In this document: piece after piece, positions 7,543 through 37,260 of the stretch | Layout: every line of letters begins with the position of its first letter | How positions within the stretch are numbered: position 1 is the stretch's first letter | Assembly (NCBI GenBank): GCA_964373045.1 | Contig: CAYJSI010000001.1 | Location: 31,650-95,649 of the forward strand | Length of the DNA stretch: 64,000 nucleotides | Direction of reading: 5' to 3' | DNA from: an uncultured bacterium | Lineage (GTDB): Bacteria > Omnitrophota > Omnitrophia > Omnitrophales > Aquincolibacteriaceae | The notes under the pieces: generated by a model | Told to the model about the DNA's origin: nothing | The model's input: the letters and a program-made list of their open reading frames with translations, nothing else | Databases searched by the model: none | Position numbers and translations under genes: made by a program

Positions 7543-7579
7543 TTAACCGCGTATTCTTTAAAGCGCCCATAATTCTGCC

Positions 7580-9430: not shown

Positions 9431-9431
9431 T

Positions 9432-11807: not shown

Positions 11808-11813
11808 AAGAAA

Positions 11814-13411: not shown

Positions 13412-13420
13412 GGCGCATCC

Positions 13421-14185: not shown

Positions 14186-15731
14186 AAAACAAGTCGCGCT
14201 TCTTGGATTCCTTGTTTTAGTGGTGCTGGGGATCCAGCTTTCAACCATTCAAAGACCCTTTGTCGGCCATTATGCAAGCTACCAGGGGACGGTTATGGCC
14301 GCCATGGCACGTAATATGGTTCGCGAAAATTTCAGGGAAATCCTTCTTCCCAAAACAGATGCCGTTATCGGAGGCGAGAGATCGCTCCATCTGAATCAAT
14401 ATCCTTTTCCATCACTTCTGGCGGCGCTCGGCGTTCGCTTCGTGGGGGGGAGCTATGAATTCTGGGGACGATTTCAAGCGGTTTGTTTCAATCTTTTCTC
14501 GCTCATCCTTCTTATATTGATTGCACGCAGACTTTTTGACCCCATGACCGCCCTTGTGGCGGGTTGCCTTTACGCTTGGTCGCCTTATACGCTCATTTAT
14601 GGTCAAAGTTTTATGTCGGAGGCGAGCTCGTTATGTTTTTTACTCCTTGCGCTTTGGTCGCTTCTTAAAAATTCTTCCTTTGTGGGTGTAACGCTCAGTG
14701 CACTATTTTTTTCAATCGCCGTCACGGGGCGCGTGCATTGGGCGCTTCTCTGGCCGGTTTTTGGCTTCAGTTTGTGGAGGGAGCCTCCGGGAATAAGATT
14801 TAAAAAGATGATCCTTTTTACGATCATTGCCTCGATCCTTCCCGTCGCGTGGTACGCCCACACTTATTTCGTCTCACTCGGGGCCACCAACCTTCATACC
14901 AACTTATTTCTCCAGGCATCGGCTCAAAAATCAGATCAATTTTGGTTGTTTTCAAACCCCATTTTTTTTATAAAAACCGTTCGCATTTTTTTTGGAATGA
15001 TGCTCACCCCGCTCCTCGCACCTTTTTTCTTTGCGGGCCTTATCCTGGGAGATCGAAAAAGTCATTCTTTTAAAGTGACGGCGATAGGAATCTTGGCGGC
15101 CGTCCTCGTTGCCTTTCTCGCTCCTTTAAAAGTCATAACGCATGATTTTTATCTTTACGCCGCCACTCCCTTTTTTATCATGATGGCTTCTGTGGGGCTT
15201 GCCCGGATCAGAGAGCGATTTCGGTTCTTGGCCAAATCTCTCTCTATCGGGATTTTTTTGGCGCTCTACGGAGTGGTTTCATTCCGTTTTTTTTCCCATC
15301 CCATTTTTGTTTACCCGGAAAATGAAATCCAGGCCGCGGAACGGGCTCAAATCGTAAAGAAAACATCCGAAAAAGGTGCTCTTGTTATCGCAGCAGGTGA
15401 GAATGCCCCCATCCTGGCTTATTATGTGGACCGTCCATCGTGGCAATTTCAACCCAGTCAAATCGGAGGGGCGCTGGAGGATTATCAGCGGGTTGAGGGA
15501 CTGAGCGGCAATGACCTGAACGAACTGCGAGAACTCGAAGCAGCGCAAAGGGATGGAATTAGCTGGGTCGAGTATCTAAAAGATCGTGGGGCGACCTACT
15601 TTTTCGCTCCCCACAAGGAAGAAATTGATCGGGTTCCGAATCTCTCAGAGCACCTTAGGAGTCATTACCAAAATCTGGCCAAGGATGAGGACGGCTATTA
15701 TTTTTATAGAATGGGTCCAACGCCAGCCTAA
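14169..15731 (+). CDS. Multipass membrane glycosyltransferase, GT-C fold (GT39/ArnT-like)
   Basis: 520 aa and hydrophobic, with a C-terminal soluble domain. It immediately follows the DPM1-like GT2. Confidence 0.45.
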   Translation: MPKFHKKQVALLGFLVLVVLGIQLSTIQRPFVGHYASYQGTVMAAMARNMVRENFREILLPKTDAVIGGERSLHLNQYPFPSLLAALGVRFVGGSYEFWGRFQAVCFNLFSLILLILIARRLFDPMTALVAGCLYAWSPYTLIYGQSFMSEASSLCFLLLALWSLLKNSSFVGVTLSALFFSIAVTGRVHWALLWPVFGFSLWREPPGIRFKKMILFTIIASILPVAWYAHTYFVSLGATNLHTNLFLQASAQKSDQFWLFSNPIFFIKTVRIFFGMMLTPLLAPFFFAGLILGDRKSHSFKVTAIGILAAVLVAFLAPLKVITHDFYLYAATPFFIMMASVGLARIRERFRFLAKSLSIGIFLALYGVVSFRFFSHPIFVYPENEIQAAERAQIVKKTSEKGALVIAAGENAPILAYYVDRPSWQFQPSQIGGALEDYQRVEGLSGNDLNELRELEAAQRDGISWVEYLKDRGATYFFAPHKEEIDRVPNLSEHLRSHYQNLAKDEDGYYFYRMGPTPA

Positions 15732-16601: not shown

Positions 16602-17624
16602 ATGAAGAAAATCATTGTTACGGGCGGCGCCGGCTTTATCGGCAGCCACTTAGTCGAAGCCTTGCTGGCCGAGGGCCATAGGGTCACCGTGCTGGACAAC
16701 CTTTCAACGGGCCGCCGAGAGAATCTCTCTCATCTTTTTTCCCAAAAGAATCTAACCTTCCATCAAGTTGATGTCGCCGATTTCGAAAAAATCCAGCCGT
16801 TTTTTAAGGATATTGACTGGGTTTTTCATCTTGCAGCGCTTGCCGATATCGTTCCATCGATTGAGCAGCCGCTTCACTATTACCGTTCAAATGTTACGGG
16901 TACGGTCTCTGTCTTAGAGGCTAGCCGACTGGCCAAGGTCAAGCGGTTTCTCTATGCGGCTTCGTCATCCTGCTACGGCATTGCCGAGGTGACGCCAACC
17001 CCTGAGGAGGCAAAGATTCAACCGCAATATCCTTACGCTCTAACGAAATATCTCGGGGAAGAGGCCATGCGGCATTGGGGCAAGGTTTACAACCTTCCCA
17101 GCGTGTCACTCAGGCTTTTTAATGTCTATGGTCCCAGGGCAAGAACCGCCGGAACCTACGGGGCCGTTTTCGGTGTTTTCTTGGCCCAAAAATTAGCGGG
17201 AAAACCCTTCACCGTCGTGGGGGATGGGAGTCAAACTCGTGATTTTACGTTTGTCACAGATGTTGTGCAGGCATTTTTGAGTGCCGCAAAATCAAATATC
17301 AGCGGAGAAATCTTTAACGTAGGGTCCGGCGGAACTTACAGCGTCAATCGACTCGTTCAGCTTTTGGGAGGTCCGGTTGTTTATATCCCGAAACGTCCCG
17401 GAGAACCTGATTGCACATTTGCAGACACCCAAAAAATTCAGTCTGCGTTGAAGTGGGAACCCAAAGTCGACTTCGACGAAGGTGTCGGAATGATGCTTGA
17501 CCATATCAACGACTGGAAAAGCGCGCCCGTTTGGACCGAAAAATCCATCGCGGAAGCAACCAAAGATTGGTTTAGCTATCTTGGAGAAAAGGAGTCCCTT
17601 CCGGCCGCGTCCGGTAAGAGGTAA
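16602..17624 (+). CDS. NAD-dependent epimerase/dehydratase (extended SDR; GalE/UXS-like)
   Basis: [15 protein letters not shown] Rossmann motif and YALTK catalytic YxxxK. Confidence 0.7.
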
Positions 17625-17625
17625 A

Positions 17626-18234
17626 ATGAAGAACGAATTCCTCGTGACCCCCAAAATTTATTTTGAAAAATTAGCTTCTTTGTTACAAACCACCGAAGTC
17701 ACTCGTCTTGACGGCTCTGTGATTTCCCTTGAAGAGGCCGGTAAAAAATCGGTGGGCCTGATCGTCTCGACAAAAGCAGCCGCCTCCAAGATGATGCTGA
17801 TTGGAAATGGGGGAAGCGCGGCGATTGTCAGCCATATCCAAAACGATTTGTGTGATTCGGTCGGGGTTCGGGCCATTGTGTTTAATGAGCCGCCTTTTCT
17901 TACCGCCGTGGCTAATGACCATGGCTATGAAACCTTCTTTGAGCAAGCCGTACGCCTATGGGCTGAAAAAGGGGATCTCTTGTACGCGGTGAGCAGCTCG
18001 GGCCGCTCCAAAAGCATCCTGCGCGCGGTTCAGGCTGGAAAAGAAAAAAGAGTGACGGTCATCACCTTTTCAGGGTTTCTTCCTGATAACCCGCTTCGTC
18101 AACTTGGCGATATCAATTTCTACGTGAAATCAGAAATCTACGGATTTGTGGAAACGGCGCACGCGGTCTTGGGACATTTTCTGACCGATAGCGCCATTCA
18201 AGCTGAAAAATCTTTGAAACCGGCGAGATCCTAA
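17626..18234 (+). CDS. gmhA: SIS-domain sugar-phosphate isomerase (GmhA-like phosphoheptose isomerase)
   Basis: LIGNGGSAAIVSHIQNDL and AVSSSGRS are GmhA-type SIS motifs. The ATG at 17626 directly follows the upstream stop. The longer track ORF from 17497 is an artefact of overlap. Confidence 0.55.
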   Translation: MKNEFLVTPKIYFEKLASLLQTTEVTRLDGSVISLEEAGKKSVGLIVSTKAAASKMMLIGNGGSAAIVSHIQNDLCDSVGVRAIVFNEPPFLTAVANDHGYETFFEQAVRLWAEKGDLLYAVSSSGRSKSILRAVQAGKEKRVTVITFSGFLPDNPLRQLGDINFYVKSEIYGFVETAHAVLGHFLTDSAIQAEKSLKPARS

Positions 18235-18235
18235 T

Positions 18236-19273
18236 ATGGCGTCTATTAAACGAGTTTTAGTGACCGGCGGGGCGGGTTATGTGGGCGCAGTGCTCGTGAC
18301 TAAATTGTTAGCCCAAGGGTATCAAGTCCGAGTTTTAGACCTCTATCTTTTTGGCGAACACCTCTGGAATGATCTTCCTGACCGATCTGGGCTCGAAGAG
18401 ATAAAAGGCGATATTCGCGATACCGACCTCCTCCGCCGTTCGGTCAAAAACTGTGACGCAGTCATTCACCTGGCCTGCATTTCTAATGATCCGAGTTTTG
18501 AACTCAATCCCGCACTCGGACGCAGCATCAATTATGAAGCCTTTCCGCCCCTTGTGAAACTAAGTAAGCAGGCCGGTGTGAAGCGATTCATTTATGCCTC
18601 CTCCTCGAGTGTTTACGGTATTAGCGAGATTCCCAATGTGACGGAAGATCACCCCTTAAAACCGCTCACCGACTACAGTAAGTTCAAACAGCTTTGCGAA
18701 CCTATCTTACTTGCTGAACAGGCAGCGGATTTCACGACTTTGGTACTGCGGCCCGCCACCGTTTGCGGTTATTCTCCGCGCTTAAGGCTGGATCTTACCG
18801 TTAACATTTTAACGAACCACGCTGTCACCCACGGCAAGATTAAAGTTTTTGGCGGAAAGCAGCTCCGCCCCAATATTCACATTGGCGATATGACGGATCT
18901 TTACGTTCAACTGATGGAACTGCCGGATAAGGAAATCGCGGGGAAAACGTATAACGCGGGATATGAAAATGTTTCGGTCATGGATCTTGCAAAAATCGTT
19001 CAAAAGGTCGTGCAAGAAAAAATGCCCGAACGAAGAAAGATCGATATTGAAGTCACGCCCACGGACGATGAAAGGTCCTACCATATTTCGTCCGAGAAAA
19101 TCAAAAAGGAACTTGGTTTTGTCCCGCGCCGCAATATTGAAGATGCGGTGAATGACCTTGTGACTGCGTTCCAGGCGGGAAGGATTCCGAATCCCATGAC
19201 GGATGAGCGCTATTACAATATTAAGACTATGCAGCACACGGAACTCTTAAACTCACTCCTCACAAGCCGTTAA
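18236..19273 (+). CDS. NAD-dependent epimerase/dehydratase (extended SDR)
   Basis: VLVTGGAGYVGAVL Rossmann motif; SSSSVYG; YSKFK catalytic YxxxK. Confidence 0.65.
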   Translation: MASIKRVLVTGGAGYVGAVLVTKLLAQGYQVRVLDLYLFGEHLWNDLPDRSGLEEIKGDIRDTDLLRRSVKNCDAVIHLACISNDPSFELNPALGRSINYEAFPPLVKLSKQAGVKRFIYASSSSVYGISEIPNVTEDHPLKPLTDYSKFKQLCEPILLAEQAADFTTLVLRPATVCGYSPRLRLDLTVNILTNHAVTHGKIKVFGGKQLRPNIHIGDMTDLYVQLMELPDKEIAGKTYNAGYENVSVMDLAKIVQKVVQEKMPERRKIDIEVTPTDDERSYHISSEKIKKELGFVPRRNIEDAVNDLVTAFQAGRIPNPMTDERYYNIKTMQHTELLNSLLTSR

Positions 19274-19283: not shown

Positions 19284-20522
19284 GTGACCCGAGATCCCTC
19301 CCTCGCGATCATTGGTGGCGGCATCGTGGGTCTTTCCACGGCCATGCAGCTTGCCCGGCAATTTCCGGACCTAAGTCTCACCCTCCTCGAAAAAGAAAAC
19401 GAACTTGCGAGCCACCAGACCGGTCATAATAGCGGCGTTATCCATTCTGGGATTTACTACGCCCCCGGTTCCCTTAAGGCACGCCTTTGTGTCGAAGGGG
19501 TGAAGCGACTTCTTGCTTTTGCGGATGACAATCAAATCCGCTACGAGCTTTGCGGAAAAATAATTATTGCGACAAGTGAACGCGAAGTCTCGGCACTCCG
19601 CACCCTCTTTGAACGCGGAAGGGCAAACGGTGTCACCGGCCTTGAGCGGATTGATCAAAAAAGAATCCGTGAACTCGAACCTCATGCCGCAGGCAGGGAG
19701 GGGCTCTATTCTCCTCGAACGGGAATCATGGACTTTCGCGCCGCGGCGATTGCCATGTCACGGCGCTTTTGCGATGCAGGCGGTGTCATTCGCACTCAGT
19801 CCAAGGTTCTGAAAATTATCCGGGAGGGCGATTCCTATATCCTCGAAACAACTTCCGGTGAGGTCCGCTCGAAGTATCTCATCAATTGCGCAGGACTTCA
19901 TGCCGACAAGATAGCGAGATTGGCAGGTGTTCAAACCGATTTAAGGATTATCCCCTTTCGAGGAGAGTACTGCCGGGTACGCAAAGAAAGAAAATCTCTT
20001 GTCAAAAACCTTATCTACCCTGTTCCGCTGCCCGAGCTGCCTTTCCTGGGAGTCCATTTTACTAGAACCGTTGACGGCGTCCTGGAAGCCGGGCCCAATG
20101 CGGTCCTGGCGCTGGCGCGCGAAGGCTATCGCCGAACGCAGATTCATTTCGGAGATGCGATCGAGATGGCAGCAACAGGGAATTTTTGGAAGATGGCGGG
20201 AAAATATTGGAAGACGGGTATTTTTGAATCTTATCGGGCCATGAGCCGGAAGGCCTTCGCCCGCGAACTCCAAAAACTGGTTCCGGAAATCCGTGAAGGG
20301 GACCTGACGGAAGGGCCGAGCGGTGTGCGCGCCCAGTGTGTGGATGGGGACGGATCCCTTGTGAATGATTTTAAAATTCTAGAAGCGCCTCACGCCATCC
20401 ATGTACTCAATGTGCCGTCTCCCGCCGCAACAGCATCGCTTGCGATCGGTGAATACCTTGTTGGGTTAGCAAAAAAATCTTTTGAACTCAAAGGAAGGGA
20501 AAAAGCAACTCGTAGTTTTTAA
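19284..20522 (+). CDS. lhgO: FAD-dependent L-2-hydroxyglutarate oxidase/dehydrogenase-like protein
   Basis: AIIGGGIVGLSTAMQL (FAD-binding fold), HQTGHNSGVIHSGIYYAPGSLKARLC, FRGEYCRV, GPNAVLALAREGYRR and VLNVPSPAATASL all match my recollection of LhgO/YgaF-family sequence. Confidence 0.55.
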   Translation: MTRDPSLAIIGGGIVGLSTAMQLARQFPDLSLTLLEKENELASHQTGHNSGVIHSGIYYAPGSLKARLCVEGVKRLLAFADDNQIRYELCGKIIIATSEREVSALRTLFERGRANGVTGLERIDQKRIRELEPHAAGREGLYSPRTGIMDFRAAAIAMSRRFCDAGGVIRTQSKVLKIIREGDSYILETTSGEVRSKYLINCAGLHADKIARLAGVQTDLRIIPFRGEYCRVRKERKSLVKNLIYPVPLPELPFLGVHFTRTVDGVLEAGPNAVLALAREGYRRTQIHFGDAIEMAATGNFWKMAGKYWKTGIFESYRAMSRKAFARELQKLVPEIREGDLTEGPSGVRAQCVDGDGSLVNDFKILEAPHAIHVLNVPSPAATASLAIGEYLVGLAKKSFELKGREKATRSF

Positions 20523-20528: not shown

Positions 20529-21260
20529 ATGCTTCCCTCAGTCAAATCTCTCACCATCATCATTCCCGCCTACAACGAAGAAAAAAATATCCGACCGACG
20601 TGCGAGGGGATGATCCGTCTCGCTGAAAGGCACCTGAAGGATTACGAAATATTAGTATTTGATGATACAAGCCAGGACCGAACGAGCGATGTAGTTCGTG
20701 AGCTCCAAAAAACGAACCCTCATTTGATCTTAATTCGGAATCCTGTGAATATGGGCCTTGGATATAATTATCGTGCCGGGGTGCTCAAGGCACGGTGCCA
20801 ATATGTCATGATGGTGCCCGGAGATAACGAGATGGTCGCCGAGGCCTTAGACGATCTCTTTCGGGAGATCGGCACCGCCGATATGTTTATCTGCTATTCG
20901 GCCAATCCCGAAGTGCGGCCCGGTTGGAGGCAGTTCATTTCAAAGCTTTTTACCGGAACCCTAAACATGCTTTTTGGGCTTAAGATCCGTTATTATAATG
21001 GCCCTTCCGTCATTCGGACCGATTTGGCAAAAGAGTTTCTTCCCTCTACCAACAGCTTTGCCTATATGGCCGTCATGCTGGTTCAGCTCCTGAAGGCAGG
21101 TTACGCCTATAAACATATGACCTTCGCCCTCCAACCGAGGCAATTCGGCATGACCAAGGCCTTTCAATTCAAAAATGTGGTCAATGTGATACGAGATATC
21201 CTGATCCTTTTCTGGAAAGTACGCATCTTGCGTTCTTGTAAGGGATTAAGCAGGCCTTGA
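20529..21260 (+). CDS. GT2 glycosyltransferase
   Basis: LTIIIPAYNEEKNI...ILVFDDTSQDRTSDVV...MMVPGDNEM are GT2 motifs. Confidence 0.6.
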   Translation: MLPSVKSLTIIIPAYNEEKNIRPTCEGMIRLAERHLKDYEILVFDDTSQDRTSDVVRELQKTNPHLILIRNPVNMGLGYNYRAGVLKARCQYVMMVPGDNEMVAEALDDLFREIGTADMFICYSANPEVRPGWRQFISKLFTGTLNMLFGLKIRYYNGPSVIRTDLAKEFLPSTNSFAYMAVMLVQLLKAGYAYKHMTFALQPRQFGMTKAFQFKNVVNVIRDILILFWKVRILRSCKGLSRP

Positions 21261-21374: not shown

Positions 21375-23309
21375 GTGAAAATTCTCTTTATCCACAAAGA
21401 AGAAGATCCGATCGATCCCATGCAGATTGAGCTTCTTTCCGCCCTTGCGAGGCGGGAGGGGCACGATACCTTCCTCAATATTCTTCAGCATAAAAATCTT
21501 GCCGAGGATCTGCGCCGGATCCGTCCCAACCTCGTGGCTTATACCGGGAAAACCGGTGAGCACAATACGCTTCTAAAGGTCAATCGCTACATCAAAGACA
21601 CTTACGGTGACAAGGTCTTCACGATCATGGGAGGCCCGCATACGACCTTCAATCACAGCGGCATGCAGCTCTACGGAGAGAGCGACGACGAGTTTCAAAA
21701 TTTTCGCAATACCCGTGCTGAGCTAAAAATTTTTACGGGAAACAAACAACGTCATGTGGTGGCTGAAAAATCAGAACTCGATGCCCTCTGTTTTGGCGAA
21801 GGGGATGATGCGTGGGTTGAACTATTAAAAGCCCTCCAAGAGGGCCAGTCGATTGATGACATCCCTAATATCATTACGCGCACCAACCGTAAAAAATATC
21901 CGGAACCTCAGTTCCGTGAGCGCCGCATTGATCTTGACGATCTCCCTTTCTACGACCGCAAGCTGGTTTATGACAAAACCTTTCTCGCCCATTTTCCGAT
22001 GCGCAGTTTTATGTCGAGCCGCGGCTGCCCCTACCGGTGCACGTATTGTTTTAATTTTGACTACAACCGGACTTACAGCAAGGCCGGAAAAATGGTCAAG
22101 ATGCATAACCGCTACGGCGTCGACCGCTTGATTGCGGAGGTCAAAGACTGGCTTGCCCTGGAAGAAAAGCACGGCTATACCAAAACCCAATTCATCAAAT
22201 TTTATGATGATATGTTCGAATTCCGGGTGAGCCCGTGGCTTGAGGAATTCTCTGAAAAATTTCCGCGGGAGGTCGGCCTCCCGTTTTCCTGCCTGGTCCG
22301 CTGCGACGTTTTTTCCCACGAAAACAAGGACGGCTCGGTCCAGGAGCGAGAAGAAATCCTTCACTACCTCAAAAGAGCAGGCATGCGTTCCATTAATATG
22401 TCGATTGAGGCGGGAAATAATTTCATCCGTGAAAATGTTCTGGTGCGCGACATGACGGAAAAAGAAATCCGCTCGTCCTTTAACATGATGAAACGTAACG
22501 GTATTGGTACGTTTGCCAATACCATTCTAGGAATTCCCGCGCCCGTGATCCCGCGACGCTCGGATCCGCAATTTGACCAAAAGCTCGGTGTCTCCATCGA
22601 TCAAGTGCACAAGGCTTTTTTTGTGGCAAAAAAACAAGCAGGGGGTTCTCAGGGGCCGAAATATCCGGAAGTCTTCGATTCCATTGCCGATCATATCGCG
22701 ACCGGAACGATCACAGAGGACATGCGCCAGCAGGCGGTTCAAATCATGGAATCCATGCAAATGCGCTATGACGTCCTGGATTACGATATCGAATCCGTCG
22801 AACTCAATGTTCAGCTTGGCGTTCATCAAGCCCTTTTCCCGCGTCTTGAGCCGTATCCGGGCACCATTGTCACCGATTACACGATCGCCATTGGAGTTTT
22901 TGACGGAGATTTTGAAAAGCTCCACAGTTCCTGCCTTTCAAGCTCTGCCTTTCTGTGTTATGACAAAAGACAGCGCATGGTGCAGGACAACCTTTCATTT
23001 CTCGGTCAGGTCTGTACGGTTTGGCCGTGGCTCTGGCCCCTTTCCAAAAAATTTCTGATTTATCTTCCGCTCACCCATCTTTACTGGATTATGTTCGTTC
23101 TTGCAAAATCGTATGTTGTAAATAAGCATGTTTATCCGATGAAATTCAGCGTTAAGGATTTTATCCGGTCCGCCTACCGCATTATTCTTTTTGAAGTCAA
23201 ACAGTTTTTTCGGCCCGAAGCAGGAGAAAATTTTTACAAGAAGCCCAAAGGATGGATGGCGCGCGCTGCAAGCCCCACGGACACCCTCGGCGGTCGTTGG
23301 GAGTCCTAA
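21375..23309 (+). CDS. B12-binding-domain radical SAM protein
   Basis: CPYRCTYC (CxxxCxxC) about 215 aa in, after an N-terminal Rossmann-like domain. A long C-terminal extension carries hydrophobic segments. Confidence 0.55.
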   Translation: MKILFIHKEEDPIDPMQIELLSALARREGHDTFLNILQHKNLAEDLRRIRPNLVAYTGKTGEHNTLLKVNRYIKDTYGDKVFTIMGGPHTTFNHSGMQLYGESDDEFQNFRNTRAELKIFTGNKQRHVVAEKSELDALCFGEGDDAWVELLKALQEGQSIDDIPNIITRTNRKKYPEPQFRERRIDLDDLPFYDRKLVYDKTFLAHFPMRSFMSSRGCPYRCTYCFNFDYNRTYSKAGKMVKMHNRYGVDRLIAEVKDWLALEEKHGYTKTQFIKFYDDMFEFRVSPWLEEFSEKFPREVGLPFSCLVRCDVFSHENKDGSVQEREEILHYLKRAGMRSINMSIEAGNNFIRENVLVRDMTEKEIRSSFNMMKRNGIGTFANTILGIPAPVIPRRSDPQFDQKLGVSIDQVHKAFFVAKKQAGGSQGPKYPEVFDSIADHIATGTITEDMRQQAVQIMESMQMRYDVLDYDIESVELNVQLGVHQALFPRLEPYPGTIVTDYTIAIGVFDGDFEKLHSSCLSSSAFLCYDKRQRMVQDNLSFLGQVCTVWPWLWPLSKKFLIYLPLTHLYWIMFVLAKSYVVNKHVYPMKFSVKDFIRSAYRIILFEVKQFFRPEAGENFYKKPKGWMARAASPTDTLGGRWES

Positions 23310-23327: not shown

Positions 23328-23837
23328 TTGACTTTGACCCTCCGTCTCCTCGTTATTCCCTTTATCAGTTTCGCGGGATGCCTGATCTTCCATATTCTTT
23401 TATGGAGGTTTTATCGCCCGAAACATCAAGCCTCAGCCTTATTAGGGATCCTTATCGGCCTGCCCTTTATGATTTTTCTCTTCTGGAAGCTCCCCCGGCC
23501 CTATTTTCCCTGGACGGATTTTTATGCCATCCTGCTCCTCCACACCTCCCTTAGCCTCGCCTATATTCTGGTGTACCCGGCGAGCCAAGCCGATAGCCCG
23601 TCCTTTAAAATCCTTCTTCACGTCGGGAGGGCTATGCCGTCGGGATTAAGCACTGAGGAGATTCAATCACGGTTTCCTGCCAGCGCTCTGCTCGATGCCC
23701 GTATCCAGGACTTGATCAACGCCAACCTGGCCCGCGTTCAATCAGATAGGTTAATTTTAACGCGCCAGGGAAGGTACTTCATAAAACCCTTTATCATGCT
23801 GCGCAAAGCGCTGGGGCTTCCCGCCGGCGCCGGTTAA
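23328..23837 (+). CDS. Hypothetical small membrane protein (4 predicted TM helices plus a basic C-terminal domain)
   Basis: ORF only; no recognisable family. Confidence 0.35.
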   Translation: MTLTLRLLVIPFISFAGCLIFHILLWRFYRPKHQASALLGILIGLPFMIFLFWKLPRPYFPWTDFYAILLLHTSLSLAYILVYPASQADSPSFKILLHVGRAMPSGLSTEEIQSRFPASALLDARIQDLINANLARVQSDRLILTRQGRYFIKPFIMLRKALGLPAGAG

Positions 23838-23845: not shown

Positions 23846-24373
23846 GTGGCTTTCTTCCTTTTTTTGCTGACCCTATCCCCGCTGCTTGCCTTTGCCATTC
23901 ATTTCCTCATGGCGTGGTTTGTCCAGATTTGTCACCTTCGAATGACTCCGCTGGCCGTTGCCCTTAGGGCCGTCCTGTCAGGTTACGTCGTCATGAATTT
24001 CCTTAGCTTGAAACATGTGATACTGCTTAAAGGATTTCATTTCGGCATTTTCTTTTATTTCCTATACGGGACACTCGTCTATGGGGGTCTTGCATTTTCT
24101 TATTTTCAATTTTTCGCCATGACGGAGACGGCAAGGCGCATTCGAATTTTGCGTGCTGCGTACGAAAGCGAGGGGCTTTTTATCGCCGACTTAAAAAAAA
24201 GTTATGACGCAGAGGATATGCTGAGCGTCCGTCTGGATCGACTGGTGACGTGGAAGCAGCTTAAGATGAACGAGGGGAGATTCGTCCTGGCAAGCCATAC
24301 CCTCCACAGAATCGCAAAAATTATCGATGCCTGGGCCGTCGTCCTTGGTTTTTCAAAGCGCGGATCCTCATGA
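23846..24373 (+). CDS. Hypothetical small membrane protein, apparent paralogue of the preceding ORF
   Basis: Similar size (about 170 aa) and similar TM-plus-C-terminal-domain architecture to 23328-23837. Confidence 0.35.
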   Translation: MAFFLFLLTLSPLLAFAIHFLMAWFVQICHLRMTPLAVALRAVLSGYVVMNFLSLKHVILLKGFHFGIFFYFLYGTLVYGGLAFSYFQFFAMTETARRIRILRAAYESEGLFIADLKKSYDAEDMLSVRLDRLVTWKQLKMNEGRFVLASHTLHRIAKIIDAWAVVLGFSKRGSS

Positions 24374-24882
24374 AATTTCAGGCCCTTACCAACCACGTCC
24401 TTCGGGATCATGTGCTGATCGGCGGCCTTGCGGCGGCATGTCTTGCGCCGTTCTGGGGCCCGTGGGAAAGTCTCGCCTTTTGGATCGCCACGGTCATGGT
24501 CGACGCCGACCATTATTTACACTATCTCAGCTGTACAAAAGGGAGACACTTTGGCATTGGCCCCATGCTTCGCTTTCACGAGGAACTTTTCTCTAGGCGC
24601 CACCGTCCCGAGCTCCTCGTTTTGGAAATTTTTCATACGGTTGAATTTGTCCTCCTGCTGGGATGGGCCGCTTTTAATTATTTTCAAGGCCTCATCCCGG
24701 TTTTTTGGGGTGTTGTCTTTCATATGGCCGTGGATTTTATCCATCTCAAACGATATGGAATTTTGAGCAAGCGGGTCAATAGCTTCCTGGAATACGAGTG
24801 GCGAAAGAAGGGGCTTCTGAAGCAGGGCTTAGATCCCAGTCGGCTGATGGAAGAGACGTTGAACGCCGCAAATTTAAGGTAA
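24370..24882 (+). CDS. Hypothetical His-rich membrane protein (possible membrane-bound metal-dependent hydrolase, DUF457/YdjM-like)
   Basis: VDADHYLHY and HMAVDFIH histidine clusters flank hydrophobic helices. Confidence 0.3.
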   Translation: MKFQALTNHVLRDHVLIGGLAAACLAPFWGPWESLAFWIATVMVDADHYLHYLSCTKGRHFGIGPMLRFHEELFSRRHRPELLVLEIFHTVEFVLLLGWAAFNYFQGLIPVFWGVVFHMAVDFIHLKRYGILSKRVNSFLEYEWRKKGLLKQGLDPSRLMEETLNAANLR

Positions 24883-24895: not shown

Positions 24896-26659
24896 TTAGG
24901 CAGGCAGATCGATTCGATAGATGATGACCTCGTGCTTTTTGATGCGGCGCCCCACCTTCAATTTCATGAAGTTCAGCAGCTTCAAATATCGCATAAACCC
25001 CGTGGGGGCATCGTAGAAATTGTAACGATTCCAGAGCGTGACGCGGTACCCTGCCCTTCGGAACGATTCTAGCCGTTCGGCGTCTTCGCTGCGCGAAAAG
25101 AAATAAAGCAAACCTTCCTTCTCTATTTTGGCACGCGCCGTTTCAAACCAATCAGCCGGAAGATTGTACCAATCGATCACCCTGAATCTCTGCTCAAGCT
25201 CTGAGTGTTTGAGATAGATCTCCCAAGGCCCCGGCTCTTTTCCGTAGGCTTCTCGAAAAAGATCCTTCTCGGCCTCGACCTGCACCCACTGCATGCCTGC
25301 GAAATGTTTGGAGATTCCAGTATAAAATCCGTAATTCGGAATGGCAGTAAAGAGAATCGCGCCGGTCAGAACCCAACGAAACATTGACCGGCGATTACGC
25401 AAAAATTCGAAGCGCTCACTCCAGACTCCCATCCCCATAAAAAAAAGCAAGACCCCGGGGACATAGGCAAAGTTTAAGAACCGCGTGTCATCCACCGTTA
25501 ATCCGTTGGCAAATCCCGCCACCGTGGCCGCGAACCAAATCAAAAGGATCCAAAATTCATGCTCGAGCCGTGCCGGGTCCATCGATACTTTTGAAAAAGA
25601 CTTCTTTCGAAACCGTGAAAGGATCCATGGAAGCAAGAGCAAGTTAAGCCAGAATAACCATCCGATAAAAAACCCCATATTTTCCGTAAGAGATCGCGGG
25701 ATCTTTTTGCGGCAAAGCGTGGTCAAGGGAAATTCTCCACCCGCAACAAAAAAAGTCCGCTGCAACATATTTTTCCAGTGAAAACTCAGGGTTGTTTTAT
25801 CTTTGCTATCCACATCTTCAGCAACTTCAGAGGAGGCCACGCCCGGCTGGGAGGCAGTCGTGTGGGATTGAGTTTTGAAGGGGATAACCAACATTATCAT
25901 CGCCAACGCGGTCACGATCAAGAGGGAGAGGCGCCGAAGACCGATGCGAGTCGTTATGAACCGAAATCGCCAAACAAAAAAACCCAGACAAACCAAAGGC
26001 AAAATTTTCTCACTGGATTTAAGTTTGATGGCAAGCCAGATCGCGAGCACCCAGCCCATGATTTGAAGGAGAAAGCTCGCAAAGGATGGGGAACGTTCAA
26101 AGGTTAAACGCGACAATAAGAGTAGGGCCGTGATTGAAAGAATTGAAATGGTGGGCTGAAAATCACCGGAAAAAGTCGAGGTTAGTGTGTAATAATTTGT
26201 AGGAAAACTTGTGTAGAGAATGACAGCGAGCCAGGCGAAAAGTTTGCTCCCTGTCCAGCGATAGATCAGGAAAAAAAAGAGGGCCGATAAAAGTCCCGCG
26301 CCTACGGCAGCGGTCAGATGAAAGGGGATCAATGAATCAGCAAAAAGATCGAAATAAGACTTCATCCATAAAAACTGAAGTGGTCGTAAGAATTCCATCA
26401 TCCGATCCGGGGGATAAAACCATGCGGGGGACAGGGGATTTAAGGTCCGCAAGAAGAGATCGGAATAAGTGGAGGCGTTTACCCCGCGCAAGTTAATTGT
26501 GATGTGATCCGAATTAAAATCTGTCGGCAGGCCCAACCAGTAAAAGCAAATAAAGGCAAAGGAGAACAAGAAGGCTAAGAGAAGATGCTTTTTAATCGGG
26601 GCGGGAACCCAGAATGTCGTGGACGTCATAGGAGCTTTCATGATAACATTTTGTGTCAT
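24896..26659 (-). CDS. Large multipass membrane protein (putative GT-C-type glycosyltransferase) with a C-terminal soluble domain
   Basis: 587 aa with more than 10 hydrophobic helices. It is divergent from the carrier-protein cassette. Confidence 0.4.
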   Translation of the reverse strand: MTQNVIMKAPMTSTTFWVPAPIKKHLLLAFLFSFAFICFYWLGLPTDFNSDHITINLRGVNASTYSDLFLRTLNPLSPAWFYPPDRMMEFLRPLQFLWMKSYFDLFADSLIPFHLTAAVGAGLLSALFFFLIYRWTGSKLFAWLAVILYTSFPTNYYTLTSTFSGDFQPTISILSITALLLLSRLTFERSPSFASFLLQIMGWVLAIWLAIKLKSSEKILPLVCLGFFVWRFRFITTRIGLRRLSLLIVTALAMIMLVIPFKTQSHTTASQPGVASSEVAEDVDSKDKTTLSFHWKNMLQRTFFVAGGEFPLTTLCRKKIPRSLTENMGFFIGWLFWLNLLLLPWILSRFRKKSFSKVSMDPARLEHEFWILLIWFAATVAGFANGLTVDDTRFLNFAYVPGVLLFFMGMGVWSERFEFLRNRRSMFRWVLTGAILFTAIPNYGFYTGISKHFAGMQWVQVEAEKDLFREAYGKEPGPWEIYLKHSELEQRFRVIDWYNLPADWFETARAKIEKEGLLYFFSRSEDAERLESFRRAGYRVTLWNRYNFYDAPTGFMRYLKLLNFMKLKVGRRIKKHEVIIYRIDLPA

Positions 26660-26738: not shown

Positions 26739-27041
26739 ATGGTTTCAGAAGACCGCGTCAAAGAGCTAATGCTAGAGGCCCTCAAAAAAGTGAAGGAGGC
26801 CGAAGAGATTTATAAAAACCTTCCTTTGAATGATCAGACCATCGTCCTGGGACGGGGCGGGGCCTTCGATTCCATCGCCTTTACAGCCTTTGCCACGGAT
26901 TTTGAGGAAAAAATGGAAGATGAGACAGGTTCTGAGTTTATTCTTAAAATGGACGAGCTTTTTTCTAAAAGTAAAGGCAAGTCCGACTTTACAGTGGCCG
27001 ACCTCGCAAGGTTCGTGGCCGGAAAGAGTGGGCGCAACTAA
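26739..27041 (+). CDS. Acyl/peptidyl carrier protein-like (phosphopantetheine attachment Ser in GAFDSIAF)
   Basis: 100 aa and acidic, with a DSI serine motif in the position of the ACP DSL motif. AAGGAG Shine-Dalgarno lies 12 nt upstream of the ATG. Confidence 0.45.
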   Translation: MVSEDRVKELMLEALKKVKEAEEIYKNLPLNDQTIVLGRGGAFDSIAFTAFATDFEEKMEDETGSEFILKMDELFSKSKGKSDFTVADLARFVAGKSGRN

Positions 27042-27044
27042 CCG

Positions 27045-28118
27045 ATGGAAAAGGTCGTTTCTTCTGAGGGGCCCATGACCGCCGAAAGCAAAATCACGGA
27101 GGAACTCTCGACCCTCATTCGTGGTTTTTTCGCCACTCCCGTGATTTCTGGTTTGGGGAGAACAGGCGTGCTAAAAATGATTCTGGAGCGTGAGCGCTTC
27201 TCGCCGGGTGACTTTGCGGCCGTCCCCAATAAGCAATTGCTCACCTACAGCTTCCGATACCTTGCACGAATCGGCCTTCTTGAACCTGAAAATGAATTAA
27301 GGGGCGAATACCGCGCCAGCGAACTCGGCCGCCAGGTTTTTCAGCGGGTGAACTCTTTTTATGCCCCTCACTCTTACCGCGATTACATGCTCCATTACCG
27401 GGAGCAGTTATTGAACGCGGGCCCTTATCAAACGCTCAAGGTTGACCGTCTGGAAAATATCATCGGAAGCGGGCGCACTCATGAGCGTTATTTTCCGCCG
27501 GCGGTTTCTTTCTTAAAACGAAAGGTTCAATTTGATGTTTTGGCCGATATCGGGTGCGGAGACGGGCGGTTCTTGGAGTTTGCTTTAAAAGGCATTCCTT
27601 CCATCAAAGTTGTCGGAATTGACTTATCGGAGATTTCAACAGAAACCACGCGAAAAAATCTTCAACAGAAATATCCCGACCGCACAATCCATACCCTCTG
27701 CTCAGACGCAAGCGATATTGAAAAGTGGAGCGAACCGCTTACCCGTTTTGTCGGAAAGGAAACCCTTGCTATCTCCATGTGGTTTTTGCTCCATGAAATT
27801 TCGCGGAGTGAACCGAAAAATGTTTTGGAATTTCTCCTTCAGGTCCATCGCCTCTTTCCTAAGACACCGCTTGTGATTTGTGAGCTGGTCCGTCAAAGCG
27901 CTGAAGTTTTATCGCGATCCCGCAGGGAAATGATCATGCCGGAGTATTTGTTTTTTCACGACATTTCGCTGCAAGGAGTCCTCTCCTGGCGGGACTATCA
28001 ATCCATCCTCAAAAATATTCCCTACCAACTGGCAAGCGAAAGGCTCTTTGACGAGATTGGGAACGAAGGGGCGAAGGAGCCCGCCACTTTTGTGTGGTGC
28101 CTCACCCCCCGGCAGTGA
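27045..28118 (+). CDS. SAM-dependent methyltransferase, plant-type OMT-like (dimerisation domain + class I MT)
   Basis: An N-terminal winged-helix dimerisation-like region is followed by VLADIGCGDGRFLEF motif I. Confidence 0.55.
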   Translation: MEKVVSSEGPMTAESKITEELSTLIRGFFATPVISGLGRTGVLKMILERERFSPGDFAAVPNKQLLTYSFRYLARIGLLEPENELRGEYRASELGRQVFQRVNSFYAPHSYRDYMLHYREQLLNAGPYQTLKVDRLENIIGSGRTHERYFPPAVSFLKRKVQFDVLADIGCGDGRFLEFALKGIPSIKVVGIDLSEISTETTRKNLQQKYPDRTIHTLCSDASDIEKWSEPLTRFVGKETLAISMWFLLHEISRSEPKNVLEFLLQVHRLFPKTPLVICELVRQSAEVLSRSRREMIMPEYLFFHDISLQGVLSWRDYQSILKNIPYQLASERLFDEIGNEGAKEPATFVWCLTPRQ

Positions 28119-28130
28119 CCCTCCAATTCC

Positions 28131-29138
28131 ATGCCGTCCGTGACGCAATCTGATTTTGGTGTTGGGATTTCCGGACTTGGAAAATATCTTCCTCGGAAAA
28201 CGATCACCAACGCCGAGTTAGGTAAAAAAATCAAGATCCTCCCTTCTGAAATTTCTGAGCGCTCAGGCATCACGACCCGCCATTTTGCCGGAAAAGATGA
28301 GTCAGCTTCCCGGATGTCGGCCGACGCCGCAAACGCTGCGCTTCGCCAAGCAGGCGTCAAAGCTGACAAGATCAATCTGATTATCTGCTGCACAACTTCG
28401 GGGGATTACCTATTTCCCGCCACGGCCGCAAAGGTTCAAGGCTTGATCGGTGCGGAGCATGCGGCTGCCTTTGATCTTTCGGCAAGCGCGGCGAGCTTTC
28501 CTCTGGCGCTCGGTCTCGCCCATGACCGATTGCGTTCCCGTCCGGAGCTAAATCATATTTTAGTGATCGGCACGGCGGTGCAGTCGCCTTTTATTGACTG
28601 GCGGAATCATAGCCTTGCGGCCTTGCTCGGGGACGGGTCCGGGGCCGCTCTTCTTTCTCGTGTCCCTGTGCCCTACGGCATTCTTGCCAATGAATCAATA
28701 GTCAAAGGGGAACTCTTTGAAGCGGCACGCTTGCGGGGCGGGGGGTCCGCCTTTCCCATGAAAAAAGACAACGTCGATCAAGGATTGCAATATATCGAAA
28801 TGGATGGCCCTACGATCGGTCGTGAGTTTCTTAAAACACAGCCGCAATTAATCGATCAAGCCCTCAGCCGAGCCGGTCTGAAGCGTTCAGATATTGATTT
28901 AATTATTTTTCACCAAGCCAATCTCCGTCTGATTCAATATGCCATGGAGCGCCTTAAGCTCCCCATGTCAAAAACCTATGCTAATGTCAGCCGAGTCGGC
29001 AACACGGCTGAGGCCTCCATCCCCATGGCCTTGTGTGAAGCTGGGGAGAAGGGCTTGATCAAGCGGGGCTCGCTCGTTGTCTTATCCGGGGTCGGTGCCG
29101 GCTGCATCTTGAGCGTCACGGTGATGCGATGGCATTAA
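28131..29138 (+). CDS. 3-oxoacyl-ACP synthase III (FabH)-like protein, apparently lacking the nucleophilic Cys
   Basis: FHQANLRLIQ (His) and GNTAEASIP (Asn) are conserved. The region corresponding to FabH AFDVAAACAGF reads AFDLSASAASF, with no Cys. Confidence 0.55.
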   Translation: MPSVTQSDFGVGISGLGKYLPRKTITNAELGKKIKILPSEISERSGITTRHFAGKDESASRMSADAANAALRQAGVKADKINLIICCTTSGDYLFPATAAKVQGLIGAEHAAAFDLSASAASFPLALGLAHDRLRSRPELNHILVIGTAVQSPFIDWRNHSLAALLGDGSGAALLSRVPVPYGILANESIVKGELFEAARLRGGGSAFPMKKDNVDQGLQYIEMDGPTIGREFLKTQPQLIDQALSRAGLKRSDIDLIIFHQANLRLIQYAMERLKLPMSKTYANVSRVGNTAEASIPMALCEAGEKGLIKRGSLVVLSGVGAGCILSVTVMRWH

Positions 29139-30124
29139 ATATGCAGGATTCCTCCATCACTTATATTTTTGCGGCGGAGAAGGATGCGCCAGAGCTCGCC
29201 CAACTCTACGCAGAATTTTACCCTCATCTTTTGTGGTCGGAAGCGTATCTTAAGTGGCAATATTTTGAGAACCCGGCCGGCCAGGCTCGCGTCCTTGTGG
29301 CAAAAATTGGCAATAAAATCATCGCCACTTACGCCATGGTTCCTCACACGATGAAGATCCGAGGCAGGCTCAAAACAGGATTCAGGATCCAGGATGCGCT
29401 CACGCGCCCGGAGTACCGCGGGTATGGGATCTATCACGCTTTCTCGCGGCGGGCAAAAAAGGAACTTATGATTCCCGATTACCCCGTCAATTTTACCTTT
29501 CCCAATGATAAGTCGTATAACGGGTTTATCAAAACGGGTTGGCAATCGGTCTTCAAAATTCCCTTAAGGATTGTACCGAATCCTCAGAAGATAGACTTGG
29601 GTGATGTCTCAGCCAAGATCGAACCCTTGACTCAGTTCAATGAACGCACAGATCAAATCTGGAGTTCATTCCTAAAATCCTGCTGCGTTGACTACGCCGT
29701 CGAGAGATCCGCAGCCTATTTAAACTGGCGTTATCTCAAACGCCCCGGAGCCACGTATCATCCTTTCGTCGTGCATTCAAAAGAAGATCGGCTTGTCATC
29801 ATCCTTAAAGATTACGAGCGTGAAAATGGGGAGCGCTGGGCTCACATCTGCGATCTTTTTCAGTCCAATCCCAACCCTCCCTTGACCGAAGCGGCTCTTG
29901 TTTTTGCCATCCGTTTTGCCTCGGAACGCAAATGCCGGGCGTTGAGTTTGTGGTCTCTTCCCGGTGGTCCGATAAGCGAGGCGCTTAAAAGGTATCCGAA
30001 CAAAGAACCCAAAGATTTTAGCCGGTGGTTTGTTTTGAATGTCAATCCTGCTGATGAAATAGTAGCGCCGTGTGTTGATGCCGGCCGTTGGCATCTTTCC
30101 ATGGGGGATAGCGATGTCTACTAA
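29129..30124 (+). CDS. FemAB-like / GNAT-fold two-domain acyl- or aminoacyl-transferase
   Basis: 331 aa. The first half has a GNAT-like core (VLVAKIGNKIIATYAMVPH...RGYGIYHAF). The second half repeats the fold, as in FemAB-related PEP-CTERM-associated proteins. Confidence 0.4.
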   Translation: MALNMQDSSITYIFAAEKDAPELAQLYAEFYPHLLWSEAYLKWQYFENPAGQARVLVAKIGNKIIATYAMVPHTMKIRGRLKTGFRIQDALTRPEYRGYGIYHAFSRRAKKELMIPDYPVNFTFPNDKSYNGFIKTGWQSVFKIPLRIVPNPQKIDLGDVSAKIEPLTQFNERTDQIWSSFLKSCCVDYAVERSAAYLNWRYLKRPGATYHPFVVHSKEDRLVIILKDYERENGERWAHICDLFQSNPNPPLTEAALVFAIRFASERKCRALSLWSLPGGPISEALKRYPNKEPKDFSRWFVLNVNPADEIVAPCVDAGRWHLSMGDSDVY

Positions 30125-36431: not shown

Positions 36432-36439
36432 GTTAGCAA

Positions 36440-37234: not shown

Positions 37235-37260
37235 AACCGTCTTATGAGGGCGCTTCCATT

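Follow-up and report, generated by a model that had tools for sequence, protein, structure and literature searches.

Two radical SAM enzymes, encoded by an uncultured bacterium within a giant island of sugar-chain genes, share a layout in which an N-terminal Rossmann domain of the B12 type is followed by a radical SAM barrel with the CxxxCxxC motif and a C-terminal helical domain. Their domain architecture, sequence motifs, and gene neighborhoods are conserved among relatives, and it is likely that both enzymes tailor sugars via radical chemistry. We take them to be functional enzymes of class-B architecture that belong to two different, uncharacterized, glycan-linked families, and we place slightly less than even confidence in the overall explanation of their roles given below. 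Cobalamin binding, substrates, order of steps, and reaction type are what we infer for the two enzymes.

A first-pass annotation of the window (the whole 64,000-nucleotide stretch of DNA that was analyzed) had proposed both proteins as candidate sugar C-methyltransferases. The ties to glycan genes and the retained Rossmann domain speak for this proposal, whereas methylation is unproven and neither protein reaches a curated methylase model. Both of the open reading frames that it reported are present and bear the domains that it described:

21375-23309, + strand: rSAM-1 (copy 1), 644 aa, GTG start, class-B architecture
rSAM-1, about aa 1-200: Rossmann domain of the B12 type, with an insert at aa 101-133
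rSAM-1, about aa 206-395: radical SAM barrel, C218/C222/C225
rSAM-1, aa 396-485: helical insert
rSAM-1, aa 531-612: aromatic-rich C-terminal helices
rSAM-1, aa 613-644: disordered tail
60214-61911, + strand: rSAM-2 (copy 2), 565 aa, ATG start, class-B radical SAM enzyme with a C-terminal helical domain
rSAM-2, aa 64-189: B12-binding domain with invariant W134 and the motif GGEHxTA
rSAM-2, aa 253-445: radical SAM barrel, C264/C268/C271

Architecture and family assignment

The folds of both proteins (AF2 models, pLDDT 84) resemble those of TsrM, TokK, CysS, MgmA, OxsB, and AprD4, but not that of HemN. Cysteines of the cluster motifs, RGC218PYRC222TYC225 in rSAM-1 and RGC264PYQC268TFC271 in rSAM-2, are invariant in 39 rSAM-1 homologues and 41 rSAM-2 homologues. 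Fold and profile scores speak against HemN and rule out a HemN-like (class C), coproporphyrinogen oxidase-like, or other non-class-B assignment; a coproporphyrinogen oxidase-like type had been the example of a non-methylating enzyme in the first-pass annotation. When scored against Pfam (cut-offs of 29.5 bits for Radical_SAM, PF04055, and 32.1 bits for B12-binding), rSAM-2 carries both domains (62.2 and 70.4 bits, respectively). The more divergent rSAM-1 passes for Radical_SAM (35.1 bits) but falls 0.6 bit short for B12-binding (31.5 bits). The N-terminal Rossmann B12-binding domain expected of class B is present in both proteins and conserved in both families, which answers the further concern that B12-binding determinants might be absent.

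The two enzymes are not recent paralogues, as they share 26% identity over 136 aa and an hhalign alignment spans only 284 columns. Neither reaches the family cut-off of any curated NCBIfam model compared (PhpK, Sden_1168, HpnR, HpnJ, BchE, KedN5, MJ_0865/MgmA, BzaD, and TsrM-type). The best model for rSAM-1 is PhpK (58.5 bits versus a cut-off of 600), and the best models for rSAM-2 are Sden_1168 (173.6 versus 575) and BchE (142.6 versus 481). By sequence, AprD4 is the top match among solved structures for both radical SAM cores.

What had been described as a long hydrophobic C-terminal extension of rSAM-1 is a domain conserved throughout the whole family and does not stand out as a membrane-spanning segment. 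Scored over 19 residues, its Kyte-Doolittle hydropathy peaks at 1.51, below the usual transmembrane threshold of 1.6. This hydropathy, the family-wide occurrence, and packed helices modeled confidently to approximately residue 600 rule out a private transmembrane anchor.

The expectation that few such enzymes exist beyond antibiotic pathways is at odds with the number of relatives, all from MAGs, which exceeds 5000 in the database for rSAM-2 (E <= 1e-5) and amounts to 369 clusters at 50% identity for rSAM-1 (E <= 1e-30). To our knowledge, cobalamin-type radical SAM enzymes are known almost wholly from antibiotic, cofactor, and lipid pathways, and we found nothing relevant in the literature on a B12 radical SAM enzyme tied to heptose, O-antigen, or Omnitrophota glycans. 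GenK, GenD1, and MoeK5 from aminoglycoside and moenomycin pathways are Csp3 methylases (PMC12931638). These enzymes carry out class-B methylation of unactivated sugar carbons, and theirs is the function that the first-pass annotation proposed for rSAM-1 and rSAM-2. Whereas they reside in actinomycete antibiotic clusters, the two families described here occur widely among uncultured Gram-negative phyla in loci for cell-surface glycans.

Gene neighborhoods of the two enzymes

Both enzymes had been placed next to sugar aminotransferases and CDP-sugar genes. This description fits rSAM-2, which is flanked by two DegT-type genes and by CDP-glucose genes, but not rSAM-1, whose neighbors encode a SIS isomerase, two SDRs, a FAD oxidase, and a GT2. 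The relevant genes are as follows:

16602-17624, + strand: SDR1, which recurs beside rSAM-1 relatives
17497-18234, + strand: open reading frame of a GmhA-like SIS isomerase (domain from aa 83), which recurs beside rSAM-1 relatives
18236-19273, + strand: SDR2, which recurs beside rSAM-1 relatives
19284-20522, + strand: FAD oxidoreductase, L-2-hydroxyglutarate oxidase-like (522 bits, cut-off 299)
20529-21260, + strand: GT2a, family-2 glycosyltransferase of 243 aa, conserved upstream partner of rSAM-1
23328-23837, + strand: sm1, 169 aa, three predicted transmembrane helices and a soluble C-terminal domain
23846-24373, + strand: sm2, 175 aa, two predicted transmembrane helices and a soluble C-terminal domain
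24370-24882, + strand: sm3, His/Asp-rich small membrane protein of 170 aa, conserved downstream partner of rSAM-1
24896-26659, - strand: multi-pass membrane protein of 587 aa, no family match, convergent with the rSAM-1 operon
54227-55798, + strand: fusion of an HldE-like nucleotidyltransferase and a PfkB kinase in inverted domain order, a cassette member in other phyla
55801-56796, + strand: PDH-type E1 alpha, forming a thiamine-diphosphate enzyme pair with E1 beta
56772-57857, + strand: PDH-type E1 beta; elsewhere the E1 pair immediately precedes GT2a and rSAM-1
57858-60121, + strand: two DegT/PseC-type sugar aminotransferases, directly upstream of rSAM-2
61998-62804, + strand: glucose-1-phosphate cytidylyltransferase, RfbF (440 bits, cut-off 300)
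62789-63958, + strand: CDP-glucose 4,6-dehydratase, RfbG (456 bits, cut-off 278)

Promoter and terminator scans around the two radical SAM genes yielded site counts that were not above those of shuffled controls.

GT2a aligns over its full length only to the polyprenyl-phosphate glycosyltransferases GtrB (5ekp, 7-211) and DPMS (5mlz, 8-225), with E values of 4e-6 to 1e-5, and it has no transmembrane helix of its own. It thus resembles, at the level of sequence, a polyprenyl-phosphate glycosyltransferase with this lipid as its putative acceptor. The three small membrane proteins noted after rSAM-1 are indeed encoded there, each with two to three predicted hydrophobic helices, and their genes follow at an 18-bp gap (sm1), an 8-bp gap (sm2), and a 4-bp overlap (sm3). 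No family match was obtained for sm1 or sm2 among Pfam and NCBIfam profiles. In contrast, sm3 is probably a YdjM-like metal-dependent hydrolase, given its invariant residues H14, D45, D47, H48, Y49, H89, E92, H118, and D122. PF04307 is matched by 15 of 23 sm3 family members (best E 4.6e-5) and Zn_dep_PLPC by three, with no match for the protein in the window. An assignment of the small membrane proteins as GtrA-type flippases is unsupported. Among the remaining neighbors, the FAD oxidoreductase belongs to the version of the operon in its own lineage only and is missing from rSAM-1-related loci, and the 587-aa membrane protein has a counterpart of 47% identity at the matching position in one Omnitrophota locus.

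Relatives of rSAM-1 occur in a cassette of fixed order, consisting of PDH-E1alpha, E1beta, a 250-aa GT2, the radical SAM enzyme, and a small YdjM-like membrane metallohydrolase. Of 84 related loci, approximately 50 have this cassette; they represent at least eight phyla, with carriers in Elusimicrobiota, Omnitrophota, Nitrospira, Rokubacteria, Thermodesulfobacteriota, and Planctomycetota. Counted singly over the 84 loci, E1alpha appears in 46, E1beta in 50, and sm3 in 41, with sm1 and sm2 found in 10 and 8. Frequent additional members are a SIS protein, a kinase-nucleotidyltransferase fusion, an SDR, and a radical SAM/SPASM enzyme. In Acidobacteriota, the partner of the rSAM-1 relatives is instead a GT2 together with an LPG_synthase_TM membrane protein. 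Because the E1 pair in the window is located 33 kb from rSAM-1, where it adjoins rSAM-2, the logic of the rSAM-1 cassette is carried over from other genomes. A tblastn search of the window and the next 10 kb recovered no radical SAM/SPASM, GT9-like, or third radical SAM cassette gene.

The E1 alpha/beta pair lies within a sugar pathway and lacks E2 or E3 partners. Similar PDH-E1-like pairs, AviB1/AviB2 and AlmDI/AlmDII, put two-carbon branches on deoxysugars, and the pair described here may be analogous. We know of no B12 radical SAM partner in those pathways. A second parallel is offered by HpnI-HpnJ-HpnK (hopanoid cyclitol ether) and ArnC-ArnD (lipid-linked Ara4N), in which a GT2 joins a sugar to a lipid and a neighboring enzyme remodels it at the membrane. 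In the Hpn pathway, the remodeling enzyme is the B12-type radical SAM protein HpnJ. The order of GT2a, rSAM-1, and the membrane hydrolase appears to mirror this arrangement, although the NCBIfam HpnJ model yields 43 bits against a cut-off of 578 and no hopanoid genes are present here. Moreover, unlike Hpn and Arn, the rSAM-1 cassette adds the thiamine-dependent E1 pair and heptose-type activation genes.

Reaction types and substrates

Cobalamin binding of the class-B kind (base-off, no His ligand) is a putative property of both enzymes, with indirect evidence from the conservation of the N-terminal domain and, in rSAM-2, from W134. For TokK, W76 is positioned beneath the cobalt, and the same is predicted for CysS and ThnK (PMC13331322). 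The alignment of the rSAM-2 family profile to TokK begins with invariant W134 set against this residue, and this correspondence gives specific support for methylation by rSAM-2. TokK, ThnK, and CysS are cobalamin-dependent radical SAM C-methyltransferases (class 1, Rossmann type) that have the three-domain layout in common with rSAM-1 and rSAM-2. However, they share only 12-18% sequence identity with them, and their substrates are carbapenam or aryl ethers of antibiotic pathways rather than glycan precursors. The best reading of rSAM-2 is that of a putative cobalamin-dependent sugar C-methyltransferase, and we judge the chances for and against its being a methylase to be evenly balanced.

If so, rSAM-2 most likely binds cobalamin base-off with Trp134 beneath the cobalt, as in TokK and, by prediction, CysS and ThnK. 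A 5′-deoxyadenosyl radical and methylcobalamin would then serve to methylate an unactivated carbon of a 6-deoxy(amino)hexose, which the flanking genes would derive from CDP-glucose. Beyond the window, the pathway continues with genes for a 446-aa DegT-family protein, an SDR, a GT2, and YfhO. The methylated sugar would be transferred to polyprenyl phosphate by the downstream GT2 and then to the final glycan by YfhO.

The situation differs for rSAM-1, in which a TokK-type Trp under the cobalt was not found in the alignments. TokK W76 aligns with G61 of rSAM-1, and hhalign sets N64 against W134 of rSAM-2. The loop expected beneath the cobalt reads K-T-G-E in place of the TokK Trp and holds no obvious TokK-, TsrM-, or OxsB-like residue. 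Specific support for methylation, such as W134 gives for rSAM-2, was not found for rSAM-1, and we consider its identity as a methylase doubtful, if conceivable. Somewhat better placed, although still tentative, is the proposal that rSAM-1 acts on a lipid-linked substrate. We know of no cobalamin-type radical SAM enzyme shown to use a lipid-linked sugar in cell-envelope glycan synthesis.

The sugar-nucleotide genes and the thiamine enzyme might generate an unusual sugar, possibly C2-extended or branched, which GT2a would put onto polyprenyl phosphate. The aromatic-rich C-terminal helices of rSAM-1 would keep it at the membrane surface, where it could then abstract a hydrogen atom from the lipid-linked sugar, followed by methyl transfer or rearrangement, and the small membrane proteins would process or pass on the product. 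On this basis, the cassette may represent an undescribed pathway, found in many uncultured Gram-negative phyla, that assembles on a lipid carrier a new kind of sugar, branched or extended in its chain, with rSAM-1 performing radical chemistry on the lipid-linked sugar at the membrane surface. We regard this full scheme as speculative and on balance rather unlikely.

The competing explanation that fares best, though we still find it unlikely, holds that one or both enzymes bind cobalamin without methylating, and that rSAM-1 in particular catalyzes a radical rearrangement, ring contraction, cyclization, or C-C bond formation on a sugar. Class-B architecture is also found in OxsB, BchE, and HpnJ, which do not methylate, and in AprD4 and ArsL, which are free of cobalamin (PMC12931638). 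OxsB is among the top structural matches, and NCBIfam matches of rSAM-1 and a 498-aa relative are spread evenly over a ladderane-lipid enzyme, HpnJ, BchE, BzaD, and methylases, with no preference for the last. The rSAM-1 cassette, with its E1 pair and up to two more radical SAM enzymes, looks suited to rebuilding a carbon skeleton; in Thermodesulfobacteriota it comprises three radical SAM genes, E1alpha/beta, a GT2, and a GT9-like gene. In the HpnI/HpnJ arrangement, too, a GT2 precedes a B12-type radical SAM enzyme. Methylation is favored over this explanation by the TokK-like Trp of rSAM-2 and by the class members characterized so far, which are mostly methylases (PMC12931638, PMC11659888).

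It is also conceivable, but improbable, that the Rossmann domain is a structural relic and that the enzymes are cobalamin-independent dehydratases, epimerases, or dehydrogenases of sugars, for example in radical deoxygenation of a CDP-linked or lipid-linked sugar. AprD4, the radical SAM 1,2-diol dehydratase of the apramycin pathway, has an aminosugar as its substrate. Both AprD4 and ArsL share a similarity network with true B12 enzymes and yet bind no cobalamin, and thus the fold by itself is no proof of cobalamin binding (PMC12931638). The B12 score of rSAM-1 below the Pfam cut-off is in keeping with such a relic. However, the N-terminal domains match the radical SAM cores in conservation (0.74 versus 0.70 and 0.71 versus 0.77 in the two families), and this conservation, together with the invariant motifs GGPHxTFN in the rSAM-1 family and GGEHxTA and W134 in that of rSAM-2, counts against a relic. 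Furthermore, profile alignments to AprD4 cover cores only (residues 195-351 in the rSAM-1 family, 218-463 in that of rSAM-2) and leave the N-terminal domains unaligned, and the NCBIfam AprD4 model (NF033070) scores rSAM-2 at 83.8 bits versus a cut-off of 500 and does not match rSAM-1. An AprD4-like 3-deoxygenase role for rSAM-2 in the CDP-sugar pathway is unlikely because the 446-aa DegT-family protein just past the window has the size of the RfbH 3-dehydrase and would already serve for deoxygenation.

Least probable of all is that the substrates are not sugars but lipids, peptides, or cofactors, with the position in the island being incidental. This would be more plausible for rSAM-2, given that two relatives (70% and 63% identity) stand alone among unrelated housekeeping genes, that 14 of the 48 loci made informative by a flank of 4 kb or more lack any glycan gene up to 5 kb away, and that lipids or peptides are the substrates of many class-B enzymes among the NCBIfam matches. 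Against it, glycan genes (GT2, SDR, DegT, NTP-transferase) lie within 5 kb in the other 34, the order rSAM-2, RfbF, RfbG recurs in loci L143 (70% identity) and L138, and a GT2 adjoins rSAM-1 in approximately 66 of 84 loci (GT2a in 54 and a different, downstream GT2 in 12 of Acidobacteriota type). In the window, each enzyme gene is co-oriented with its sugar-gene neighbors, with gaps of approximately 90-125 bp.

Implications for envelope glycans

The sugar-tailoring reading ties two uncharacterized families to cell-surface glycan loci of Omnitrophota, Elusimicrobiota, Nitrospirota, Acidobacteriota, Rokubacteria, and Thermodesulfobacteriota. With its five to eight genes, the rSAM-1 cassette is a defined unit whose co-expression could reveal the product. 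If the enzymes methylate or rearrange unactivated sugar carbons, they would enlarge the small set of biocatalysts that functionalize unactivated sugar C-H bonds, and the envelope glycans of uncultured bacteria would hold sugar types that are not yet cataloged. The synthesis of such sugars would then depend on B12, a point relevant to the cross-feeding of this vitamin within groundwater and sediment communities.

Two class B radical SAM proteins in a glycan island

Nearly all of the 64-kb window (47.7% G+C) is a single glycan island of co-oriented genes, comprising pairs of family-2 (GT2) and GT-C glycosyltransferases, methyltransferases, a nonulosonic-acid module with NeuB, a PseB-like enzyme, and a CMP-sugar synthetase, a Wzx-type flippase, and the CDP-glucose pathway. 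The first-pass annotation had reported two B12-type radical SAM ORFs with CxxxCxxC motifs, and this observation is confirmed by the ORFs, the motifs, and Pfam matches to Radical_SAM and B12-binding domains.

21375-23309, + strand: rSAM-1, 644 aa, cluster motif RGC218PYRC222TYC225
60214-61911, + strand: rSAM-2, 565 aa, cluster motif RGC264PYQC268TFC271
33512-50616: nonulosonic-acid module (PseB-type dehydratase, HisH/HisF-like amidotransferase pair, formyltransferase-like gene, GNATs, CMP-sugar synthetase, class-III aminotransferase, NeuB)
54227-55798: HldE-like bifunctional protein with inverted domain order, nucleotidyltransferase first and PfkB kinase second

In rSAM-2, Pfam scores Radical_SAM at 62 bits and B12-binding at 70 bits; the corresponding rSAM-1 scores are 35 and 31.5 bits, the latter lying 0.6 bit below the gathering score. 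A single public contig of 136,641 bp encodes exact copies of both proteins. The nearest relatives of rSAM-1 are encoded in Omnitrophota MAGs (69% identity at full length; 79% over a partial match). Recent duplication is excluded as the origin of the pair, given a BLAST identity of 26% over 136 aa; a profile-profile alignment extends over 284 columns, with 23% identity. The radical SAM barrel and the N-terminal Rossmann domain place both proteins in the class B structural group. Neither belongs to any curated functional family of that class, and both stay under the curated cut-offs of all NCBIfam models (best scores: PhpK, 58 versus 600, for rSAM-1; Sden_1168, 174 versus 575, and BchE, 143 versus 481, for rSAM-2). 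They represent new families of a known kind.

Several other features of the island deserve mention. In the region 280-15731, several GT2 enzymes are each paired with a large membrane protein of the GT-C type (PMT_2 or DUF2079). The nonulosonic-acid module also encodes a 932-aa protein (45651-48449) in which an AMP-binding enzyme is fused to a class I/II aminotransferase, pointing to N-acyl decoration of an unusual type. In the region 26739-30124, a 100-aa ORF without a Pfam match contains the sequence "GGAFDSIAF", which by eye resembles an ACP motif. Genes for a methyltransferase, a FabH-type ketosynthase III, and a GNAT come next, and an acyl side chain may be the joint product of the set. 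The gene at 24896-26659, which converges on the rSAM-1 operon, encodes a multi-pass membrane protein of 587 aa that matches no family and has a counterpart of 47% identity in an Omnitrophota locus, and a small HTH_17 (excisionase-type) ORF is located mid-island (33235-33522).

Cofactor determinants

Class B enzymes bind cobalamin in the base-off form without the histidine of DxHxxG, and the loop after strand 3 supplies the residue under cobalt: Trp76 in TokK, Arg69 in TsrM, and Asn186 in OxsB, with Trp predicted at this position for CysS and ThnK (PMC13331322). The alignment of the rSAM-2 family profile with TokK starts with an invariant W134 that faces TokK W76. The corresponding loop of the rSAM-1 family reads K59-T60-G61-E62, is almost invariant, and resembles no known solution. 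The earlier proposal that both proteins are sugar C-methyltransferases is plausible for rSAM-2, given W134 and its CDP-glucose context, open for rSAM-1, and unproven for both. Cobalamin-dependent but non-methylating chemistry is a rival explanation that is strongest for rSAM-1.

A second rival is a cobalamin-free enzyme similar to AprD4, which, like ArsL, shares the fold and the similarity network yet binds no cobalamin (PMC12931638). However, the AprD4 alignment reaches only the cores of both families. Moreover, the Rossmann domain shows the same level of conservation as the catalytic core (0.74 versus 0.70 for the rSAM-1 family; 0.71 versus 0.77 for the rSAM-2 family) and carries invariant motifs (GGPHxTFN and GGEHxTA, respectively). 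Together, these features favor, but do not prove, a working cofactor domain in both families.

Genomic associations of rSAM-2

A non-glycan substrate is a third rival, mainly for rSAM-2, whose family is large (>5000 relatives at E <= 1e-5) and variable in context, with two relatives of 63-70% identity residing among unrelated genes; nevertheless, GT2, SDR, DegT, or nucleotidyltransferase genes lie within 5 kb in 34 of the 48 metagenomic rSAM-2 loci that have 4 kb or more of flanking sequence. The gene order rSAM-2, glucose-1-phosphate cytidylyltransferase, CDP-glucose 4,6-dehydratase is repeated in L143 (70% identity) and L138, and CDP-glucose genes also occur near the rSAM-2 relative in four further loci (L089, L109, L111, and L153). 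Past the window end, 3′ of the CDP-glucose 4,6-dehydratase (L169, 6259-13754), are genes for a DegT-family protein (446 aa, matching the RfbH 3-dehydrase in size), an SDR, a 347-aa GT2, an 802-aa YfhO protein, and a DUF2079 protein. These genes constitute a dideoxy- or amino-hexose (CDP-deoxyhexose) route into a lipid-carrier and GT-C transfer system.

A conserved cassette and candidate reactions for rSAM-1

An exhaustive search for rSAM-1 relatives yielded 369 clusters at 50% identity (E <= 1e-30), among which forms of ~480 aa are common and few are as long as the window protein. Three homologous loci (Elusimicrobiota, Omnitrophota, and a third assembly) were compared by precomputed Pfam annotation. 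All three share an SDR, a nucleotidyltransferase-PfkB kinase fusion, a GmhA-like SIS isomerase, a radical SAM/SPASM protein, an E1alpha/E1beta pair of the PDH type (or split transketolase), a ~250-aa GT2, and the rSAM-1 homologue, which is directly followed by small membrane proteins in two of them. A wider scan with one genome per species gave 80 loci, every one from a MAG, whose ORFs were compared with the window proteins. Across 84 loci with an rSAM-1 relative, the partners are GT2a (the GT2 at 20529-21260; 54 loci), E1beta (50), E1alpha (46), and the small membrane protein sm3 (41), typically in the order E1alpha, E1beta, GT2a, rSAM-1, sm3. No description of this cassette was found in the family libraries or literature searched.

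The cassette is longer in Thermodesulfobacteriota, where it is preceded by a radical SAM/SPASM gene and followed by a GT9-like gene and a third, small radical SAM gene; NCBIfam names none of these. In L046, L059, L061, L067, L074, L075, and L080, the three radical SAM proteins are ~356 aa (SPASM), ~495 aa (B12-type), and ~292 aa (small), the GT9-like gene resembles heptosyltransferases, and PMT_2 and TPR membrane proteins are encoded downstream on the opposite strand. An Acidobacteriota subgroup lacks the E1 pair and is partnered by a 324-aa GT2 and an LPG_synthase_TM membrane protein. In one such locus (L170, 10001-13865), a 596-aa relative is convergent with both genes; these membrane partners differ from those found with the enzyme family elsewhere.

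In the window, the cassette is split between 16.6-24.9 kb (SDR1, SIS, SDR2, GT2a, rSAM-1, and sm1-3) and 54.2-57.9 kb (the kinase-nucleotidyltransferase fusion and E1alpha/E1beta), the latter adjoining rSAM-2. No radical SAM/SPASM gene was found in the window. The rSAM-1 operon includes an FAD oxidase resembling L-2-hydroxyglutarate oxidase (19284-20522; NCBIfam 522 bits versus a cut-off of 299) that has no counterpart in the 84 related loci, which usually carry the radical SAM/SPASM gene; it may be an oxygen-tolerant substitute for that enzyme. The heptose-pathway cut-offs lie far above the scores of both halves of the HldE-like protein and of the SIS isomerase nearby, and therefore a sugar other than a standard heptose may be activated.

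GT2a has no TM helix of its own, and its only full-length alignments are to GtrB and DPMS, which are glycosyltransferases of the polyprenyl-phosphate type. The sm3 protein (24370-24882) is probably a membrane metallohydrolase, based on invariant residues in its family alignment (H14, D45, D47, H48, Y49, H89, E92, H118, and D122) and on Pfam matches to YdjM (weak, 15 of 23 members) and zinc phospholipase C (3 members); it does not resemble a flippase. Its neighbors sm1 and sm2, each with two to three N-terminal helices and a soluble domain of no assigned family, occur only in the Omnitrophota/Elusimicrobiota locus type and a few others. Along with these small membrane proteins, a long hydrophobic C-terminal extension had been singled out in rSAM-1. 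This region is not particular to that copy but is conserved family-wide. Its sequence abounds in Trp, Tyr, and Phe, its hydropathy stays under the value normally taken to mark a transmembrane segment, and the structure model folds residues 531-612 into packed helices. The best interpretation is a C-terminal cap domain like those of OxsB, TokK, and TsrM, which may also have an affinity for the membrane surface.

The nearest functional analogues of the two proteins are the sugar methylases GenK, GenD1, and MoeK5, likened by function rather than by sequence comparison, the methylases TokK and CysS, AprD4, and the HpnI/HpnJ pair. From architecture, motifs, and gene neighborhoods, which are all that is observed for rSAM-1 and rSAM-2, we infer their cobalamin binding, substrates, step order, and reaction type. 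We propose that rSAM-2 is a cobalamin-dependent radical methylase, wherein the 5′-deoxyadenosyl radical would take hydrogen from an unactivated carbon of a CDP-glucose-derived sugar, and methylcobalamin, its cobalt tuned by Trp134 as in TokK, would then supply the methyl group. For its part, rSAM-1 would act after GT2a on a polyprenyl-phosphate-linked sugar whose carbon skeleton might be extended or branched by the E1 pair, carrying out a methylation or rearrangement whose product would then be processed by the YdjM-like hydrolase.
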